Below are positions 6,900 to 7,450 of a stretch of 64,000 nt of DNA, one piece after another. The number at the start of each line of letters is the position of its first letter. Positions within the stretch are counted from its first letter, which is position 1. Made by a program: the position numbers and the translations under genes. The notes under the pieces are model-generated. The model had not been told where the DNA came from, made no database searches, and was given only the letters and a program-made list of their open reading frames with translations. Source of the DNA: a virus; IMG/VR virus record IMGVR_UViG_3300031519_004866; one strand, 5' to 3'.

Positions 6900-6919
6900 A
6901 GAACAGCTAAAGCTGTTCT
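6900..6919. terminator. Perfect hairpin, possible terminator or 3' boundary of the structured element
   Basis: AGAACAGC-TAAA-GCTGTTCT forms an 8-bp stem. Confidence 0.5.
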
Positions 6920-7450
6920 GCTTTTTCGCTTTCGCTCAAAGCCTTATGCTTCGCTTTTAATTATCTAGATACTTAATAGTGTAAAAATAAACATTAATAT
7001 TAATTGCGAAGCAATTTTAGCATCATCTAGATTGTATGGTCACAATTAGCCCGTTACCGGGCCAAGAATGAATTTTGAACATCATCTGAGTTCGCACAGT
7101 CACAATAGTATTAGAACTACAATGCTTTTATTAAACATAGCGTAGGCGGTTATCCGATACCTACTCATTCCGTCTTAGTTTCGTTGTTACAACGGCAGTT
7201 TACTATACAAATACTACCTTACATAGTAAACCTGCAGGAATTACCTGCTCTTTTAGCCTATTAGAAAATTTGTTTTATTAATATACAGCAAACCGGTTGT
7301 TCTAGGCGTATCCAATCATCGTCCTGTTAAGGATAGTGCTGTCATATCTCTGCCGTTAACCAGAATTCCTTACCGTCACACATCAGAACGGACTTTGGGC
7401 CACATAACAACGCCGTGGCGGGCTTATTTAACGGTTTATTTGCTGTTCGT
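6900..7450 (-). ncRNA. Candidate large structured ncRNA (unassigned family); a structured ssDNA origin is the alternative
   Basis: About 650 bp without an ORF in an otherwise gene-dense genome. Long-range helices 7446-7439/7292-7285 and 7434-7428/7359-7353, at least 8 local hairpins (one with a GUAA tetraloop on minus), and a repeated ATTGTGAC-N10/11-AGATGATG motif. Confidence 0.6.

Follow-up and report, generated by a model that had tools for sequence, protein, structure and literature searches.

A large pseudoknotted RNA element of T4-like phages extends the Polynucleobacter-1 motif and may act in the initiation of replication

What does a phage keep in the one long stretch of its DNA that has no genes? 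The window, that is, the whole stretch of 64,000 nt that was analysed (IMG/VR record IMGVR_UViG_3300031519_004866), is part of an uncultured T4-like phage, and related contigs suggest genomes of approximately 350 kb. Its sole ORF-free stretch of 150 nt or more is a non-coding gap at 6855–7501, in agreement with the sequence-only reading that had singled it out. The genes on the minus strand run in the order late sigma factor (phrog_12791), gp47-like, gp46-like, a 90-aa ORF and a SegE-like GIY-YIG nuclease gene ending at 7502, and the next gene past the gap begins at 6854. Well over 100 phage loci have a conserved counterpart of the gap region, and its minus strand folds more stably than shuffled sequences (z −2.6).

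6855–7501, no strand: non-coding gap, 647 nt (ORF scan)
7502–7942, minus strand: SegE-like GIY-YIG nuclease gene, 146 aa (PF19835, E 3e-34; phrog_447)
6894–6899, minus strand: TAAATA late-promoter word of the gene 6854–5694, outside the RNA (word search)

The surroundings of the gap show some further features. Gene orientation diverges at 11838–11923, 4.5 kb from the element, and most related contigs carry a long block of opposite-strand genes on its 5' side. The two ORFs at 5694–6854 and 3721–5694, the first of which has its own TAAATA word, are large and of low complexity, start with MR(L/I) and belong to no Pfam or PHROG family.

Homologues were gathered by a nuclease search and by motif scans, and covariation was analyzed in an alignment of 46 distinct Polynucleobacter-1-type copies that are 50–84% identical to the window copy. 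An unbiased covariation scan was combined with pair counting. The 89 pairs tested are paired in 85.6% of cases, with 623 double-change cells versus 202 in shuffled and 119–186 in slid controls. G-U exceeds A-C on the minus strand (244 versus 109 cells). These data support a minus-strand structure of RNA type that is large, has many helices and pseudoknots and reaches approximately position 7020, with the following predicted parts.

7020–7460, minus strand: predicted full-length structured RNA, about 415–440 nt (alignment and pair counts; ends placed by conservation)
7353–7434, minus strand: pseudoknot 1, 7434–7429 with loop 7358–7353 (both-side changes at 6/6 pairs, 64–79% paired; moderately supported)
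7281–7424, minus strand: Rfam Polynucleobacter-1 domain, RF01718 (63.4 bits, cut-off 37, E 4e-11; full model, positions 1–141)
7256–7307, minus strand: pseudoknot 2, 7307–7305 with 7258–7256 (78–86% paired, nearly invariant; weakly supported)
7198–7231, minus strand: long hairpin (double changes at 9/9 stem pairs)
7113–7196, minus strand: conserved core (near-invariant CCG at 7195–7193 and 7161–7145; top covariation scores)
7081–7087, minus strand: box 1, AGATGAT after an invariant CTC, in the loop of a hairpin of variable register
7047–7064, minus strand: GC-rich hairpin between the boxes (94.6% paired; usually GNRA-capped in the loop census)
7022–7028, minus strand: box 2, AGATGAT after an invariant TCT, with no supported local hairpin

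Pseudoknot 1 lengthens the Rfam model at its 5' side, and pseudoknot 2 joins the Rfam domain to the core. Two further pseudoknots covary strongly: pseudoknot 3, between the hairpin loop 7216–7210 and 7112–7106, with central pairs 96–100% paired, and pseudoknot 4, between 7193–7189 and 7153–7149, which is 99.6% paired and shows double changes. The core also contains the helices 7171–7168/7116–7113 and 7163–7160/7146–7143. Pseudoknots 3 and 4 and the first of these helices, together with the Rfam match and the twin 7-nt boxes, are absent from the sequence-only reading, whose own helix set taken together does not rise above shuffles. Several of its members hold individually by covariation in the 46 homologues: the GCCAC/GTGGC and CCGT/ACGG hairpins, the hairpin at 7231–7198, the TAGG/CCTA stem within 7164–7142, the GNRA hairpin at 7064–7047 and the terminal hairpin. 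The helix drawn as nested between 7434–7428 and 7359–7353 covaries as 7434–7429 with 7358–7353, but is a pseudoknot. The crossing GCC/GGC pairing (7307/7260) is conserved, with 78–86% paired, but hardly varies, and the hairpin proposed at 7248–7234 is poorly aligned (57–71% paired). Two helices of the sequence-only reading are not conserved: that of 7446–7439 with 7292–7285 (64% paired), the true partner of 7289–7285 being 7342–7338, and the CGTTG/CAACG hairpin (47% paired), an insertion that only a small number of close relatives have.

A search with Rfam models revealed that Polynucleobacter-1 is the only family matched in the window. Segment 7424–7281 fits the whole model, and the consensus helices of the family covary in window-type homologues; the remainder of the gap gives no further match at the Rfam cut-off. 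The proposal of a large minus-strand RNA with many helices and pseudoknots is supported by covariation and G-U bias, but the suggestion that it might be a new family does not hold for its 5' third. No model match was found to group I/II introns, RNase P, tRNA, tmRNA or known ribozymes (best intron 15.9 bits, E 0.6), as had been judged by eye for all but the last of these. The large, covarying, phage-associated RNAs GOLLD, ROOL and HEARO are comparable in kind, but the element matches none of them in Rfam, is not nuclease-dependent in the manner of HEARO/OMEGA and has no tRNA context in the window.

The Polynucleobacter-1 motif was reported with no assigned function, mostly 3' of a phage-like gene and at that time not found in purified phages (Weinberg et al. 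2010, PMC2864571); the conserved gene upstream of it is GOS11034/PSSM2_218-like (PMC2864571). In the window, the element likewise lies 3' of a phage-type gene, and our literature search on the motif found nothing beyond the 2010 paper. The catalogued model covers only one third of the RNA and lacks the pseudoknots, the core and the twin boxes. The element is real and far exceeds in length the catalogued orphan motif of which it is a variant; its function we infer below, and its other ~270 nt are uncatalogued in Rfam. Because the core is retained in many relatives that have different 5' domains in place of the Rfam domain, it is the defining part.

The most unusual property of the RNA is the pair of boxes. 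Among 106 non-redundant elements, 44 different twin words occur, and the two words are identical at 7/7 positions within a copy in 99. The twin-word finder demanded at least five matches; an identity-independent profile search gave 94–100% box identity per position, and identity reaches weakly into the flanking positions. No third or complementary copy of the box lies near the element, across the genome the word shows no enrichment, depletion or self-avoidance, and the spacing between boxes is continuous (49–79 nt). For these reasons, the boxes would be read in single-stranded form, with the element's own DNA as partner; words that match within a copy but not between copies are what such pairing would be expected to produce. 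The G/A asymmetry at box position 8 derives at least partly from the box 1 hairpin. An iteron model was rejected, as no helical phasing of the boxes was seen, and so were fixed-register 9-nt loops at both boxes, a supported hairpin being found at box 1 only. Two bacterial copies (L283 and L285) have mismatched boxes that differ at the first two positions, and are possibly decayed.

Past box 2 the character of the sequence changes.

7002–7016, plus strand: hairpin whose template-strand sequence has the form of a GCGAAGC DNA mini-hairpin (loop census, sequence)
6960–7001, no strand: AT-rich tract, 14% G+C, a candidate unwinding element (composition)
6900–6954, minus strand: two DNA-type mini-hairpins (6954 and 6935) and a terminal 8-bp hairpin at 6919–6900 (loop census, pairing)

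GNNA loops in this region comprise 25 GNRA and 27 GNYA, whereas the hairpin between the boxes prefers GNRA, and the terminal stem is almost purely Watson-Crick. Mini-hairpins of the GCGNAGC/GCGNNAGC type are present at the phage G4 and ssiA priming sites, and are more stable in DNA than in RNA (PMC13037366). The last ~120 nt thus look like single-stranded DNA signals rather than RNA. An RNA of ~550 nt, the length first proposed, is probably too long: RNA-type features stop near 7020 and the loops turn DNA-type after box 2, hence the stretch is read here as ~420 nt of RNA followed by ~120 nt of DNA signals.

The distribution of the element in bacteria is informative. RF01718 scores above its cut-off in 17 of 151 genomes of the genus Polynucleobacter that were searched, and all 13 copies examined sit in one type of island of ~10 kb. 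The islands contain a divergent DUF6641 gene and the RNA with its twin boxes, and they encode a small tyrosine recombinase, a 424-aa integrase, two proteins of unknown function and, in most cases, a clamp-loader-like ATPase. None of the genes in these 13 islands is recognisable as a Rep, primase or helicase, and five islands are flanked by tRNA-derived direct repeats 10–17 kb apart. The word TAAATA lies 31–65 nt 5' of the Rfam start in 13/13 islands, and 85/85 metagenomic copies have it in the 520 nt on the 5' side of the core; it recurs before the small recombinase of the islands, and is enriched before genes in ten phage contigs. It is similar to the late promoter that has been proposed for phage CBB (PMC5259590). 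The islands have the appearance of satellites that a T4-like helper would switch on. They share with known phage satellites (PICI, PLE, PICMI, T7 islands) the presence of bacterial copies on ~10-kb integrase islands with helper-type promoter words, but have no recognised Rep or primase.

Folds of the 260-aa island protein and of DUF6641 gave no convincing structural match, which is in itself no sign of novelty, and a literature search on DUF6641 found nothing. The region at ~8500–19200 of L278 (Polynucleobacter QLW-P1DMWA-1) and its counterparts among L274–L286 form a tRNA-integrated island family with two tyrosine recombinases, candidate satellites of T4-like jumbo phages. Some Polynucleobacter genomes hold two islands (L276 with L277, L284 with L285); in one of them the islands are 18 kb apart and their box words differ.

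Only the late sigma gene and synteny led to probable relatives in cultured phages, as a blastn search with the element against cultured phages and plasmids gave no match. RaK2-like jumbo phages keep the order gp55, gp47, gp46, resolvase, a gap of 800–1500 nt and baseplate hub. The gap sequence of Escherichia coli phage A4 matches 72 phage records, most of them at 4–5 places. In A4, XaC1 and Hallingskeid the 4–5 copies are co-oriented and more evenly spaced than random (P 0.018, 0.020 and <5e-5), and those of Hallingskeid co-orient with the main gene direction. Most RaK2-type copies have a sigma70-type promoter. All show the motif order of the aquatic core, a GC hairpin with the twin words on either side, and a tail rich in A+T, and both long-range pseudoknots carry compensatory changes. 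Paralogues of one genome can differ in word but match within themselves: XaC1 has ACGTCA twice in one copy and GCGTCA twice in four, and Hallingskeid has CGTCAG twice in two copies and CGTCAA twice in two. Box position 8 matches in 18/19 RaK2-type copies versus 12 in shuffled ones.

The RaK2-type RNA, which occupies the same gene slot, is probably related to the window element, a relation that is statistically modest and runs through relatives. The aquatic profile detects a RaK2 copy with E 2e-4, and a model of the cultured core has as its sole match in 117 kb the core of one aquatic locus (L144, E 0.029). The comparison of the window copy with the cultured group gave E 0.11 and 2.7, the latter at the expected place, neither of which is significant. 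RaK2-type copies have no Rfam match, and a literature search on this RNA found nothing. Nine partial aquatic contigs (25–70% complete) hold one copy each, and multi-copy spacing is seen in the cultured group only. The syntenic gaps of phages PA5oct and Phosso gave no significant profile match. That of Pseudomonas phage PA5oct (L671:7668–9180) spans 1.5 kb with a strong sigma70-type promoter, many hairpins and only tiny annotated ORFs, and is possibly a far-diverged copy of the RNA; RNA-seq data exist for this phage (PMC7318152), and its four ncRNAs do not cover the gap. The 1-kb gap of Sinorhizobium phage Phosso (L672:9760–11160) has mini-hairpins and is directly followed by an RNase HI gene.

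Judged from its distribution and sequence, the element may be a cis-acting, RNA-primed origin of replication, a reading to which we give somewhat less than an even chance. An R-loop origin like those of T4 is, with the same tentativeness, our best single account, and is preferred because of the word match within copies, the dispersed and co-oriented copies, the DNA-type AT-rich tail and the capture of the element by islands that have no recognisable initiator. The RNA would be transcribed by read-through from the gp47–gp46 operon in the window, and from its own promoter in some relatives; a promoter that feeds a transcript into the site is clear in the islands and the cultured group, and not evident in the window. 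Co-transcription with the upstream nuclease, as first suggested, is plausible, as most phage copies have no evident promoter of their own. The RNA would fold during transcription, and one box, held in a loop, would re-pair at the site of the other box with the complementary strand of the DNA. Such pairing would stabilise an R-loop whose RNA could prime the phage replisome, while the displaced single strand would expose hairpins for loading of primase or helicase. Small chromosomal islands would have acquired this unit together with a late promoter of phage type, and would thereby be copied during infection. The fuller proposal is possible, if on balance doubtful: Polynucleobacter-1 would be the 5' domain of widespread knotted origin RNAs of T4-like jumbo phages in which one repeat pairs with its own DNA at the second, RaK2-like phages would use their 4–5 evenly spaced copies as origins, and Rep-less satellites would hijack the unit under a late promoter.

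The T4 origins oriF and oriG consist of a promoter and an AT-rich element and act through an R-loop (PMC3016281). The AT-rich tract 3' of the RNA (7001–6960, 14% G+C) fits this arrangement, and the systems share a transcript followed by such a tract, a T4-like replisome and, in the cultured group, several dispersed sites. The T4 origins are ~100 bp long, however, and have neither a conserved RNA fold nor twin boxes. The primer RNA II of ColE1 is a structured transcript of several hundred bases, followed by a primosome assembly site with single-strand DNA hairpins. The element is organized alike, but no sequence similarity to ColE1 was seen, no antisense RNA I or G-tract was identified, and no plasmid carries the element by blastn.

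Several observations count against an origin. The GC skew at fourfold sites follows the gene strand and shows no origin signature, a weak test under recombination-dependent replication. The partial aquatic contigs yielded a single copy each, the homology between the cultured group and the window element is modest, and no plasmid was found to carry the element. Two island proteins might be initiators, gene conversion between the boxes combined with a tolerant protein reader could keep the boxes equal, and the knotted core is unexplained, since T4 origins need no elaborate RNA fold. If the R-loop reading is true, it assigns a role to a motif that has lacked one since its description in 2010, explains how 350-kb T4-like phages begin to replicate, adds a self-pairing twin-repeat mechanism that we did not find described in the literature searched, and defines a type of satellite that is copied although it encodes no initiator. 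All of this can be tested in laboratory E. coli with phages 121Q or A4, provided that the RaK2-like copies in cultured phages are true relatives.

The ornate fold and near-invariant core would also suit a large trans-acting RNA that presents its word twice to a dimeric protein. Such an RNA would serve as scaffold, sponge or decoy, as ROOL, GOLLD or CsrB might, and the islands would make it late in infection to interfere with the phage. The sigma70-type promoters of the cultured group and of some aquatic lineages, the island copies behind a late-promoter word and the placement of box 1 in a loop agree with this. We nevertheless regard it as unlikely, though deserving serious weight: paralogous words differ within a genome yet match within a copy, a diffusible RNA gains nothing from evenly spaced copies, the DNA-type tail is conserved alongside the RNA, and no candidate reader is common to phage loci and islands.

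An improbable reading is that of a cis-acting packaging or recombination signal, a transcription-linked pac or synapsis site that satellites copied in order to be packaged. The constant proximity to gp46/47 and a resolvase-type nuclease, the capture under a late-promoter word and the identity of two short repeats, which resembles recombination overlap rules, all fit such a site. There are, however, no inverted arms around the boxes and no tandem or deleted forms among the loci inspected, and the sigma70-type (early) promoters of cultured phages and the strand-specific RNA-type covariation point elsewhere. Slightly harder still to credit is control of transcription in cis, by an antiterminator, attenuator or processing ribozyme that separates early from late gene blocks. 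Its place at the end of the gp47–gp46 block near the divergence of gene orientation, the compact double-pseudoknot core and the terminator-like hairpin would accord with regulation, but the genes that follow differ between loci, are convergent in some and carry a TAAATA of their own, there is no match to a ribozyme or intron family, and the identity of the twins would be left unexplained. A linked reverse transcriptase of the DRT2-like kind was also sought: PF00078 is absent from five partial genomes, and none was recognised among the island core genes.

An OMEGA-like guide RNA for the adjacent GIY-YIG nuclease is largely refuted, for while 87 of 122 loci have the nuclease gene immediately 5' of the RNA in the same orientation and a conserved upstream gene was reported for the motif (Weinberg et al. 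2010, PMC2864571), it is inverted in eight loci and absent from 15 with enough flank, at least six of which have a Holliday-junction-resolvase-like gene in its slot, the islands carry the RNA without it, phage Melnitz has the nuclease but lacks such a gap, and the word shows no self-avoidance. An OMEGA-type RNA-guided nuclease was rejected, as obligate linkage of RNA and nuclease is not found. The nuclease is a habitual neighbour and is dispensable to the RNA, a functional tie between the two being unsupported.

The SegE-like gene upstream of the element has cyanophage homologues. The protein (PHROG label 'NAD synthetase') alternates after gp46 with a resolvase annotated as RusA or endonuclease VII, as seen at L082, L124, L152, L162, L196 and L232 and at 7502–7942 of the window. 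This alternation in one slot suggests that the SegE-like protein acts on particular DNA structures and is not a homing endonuclease.
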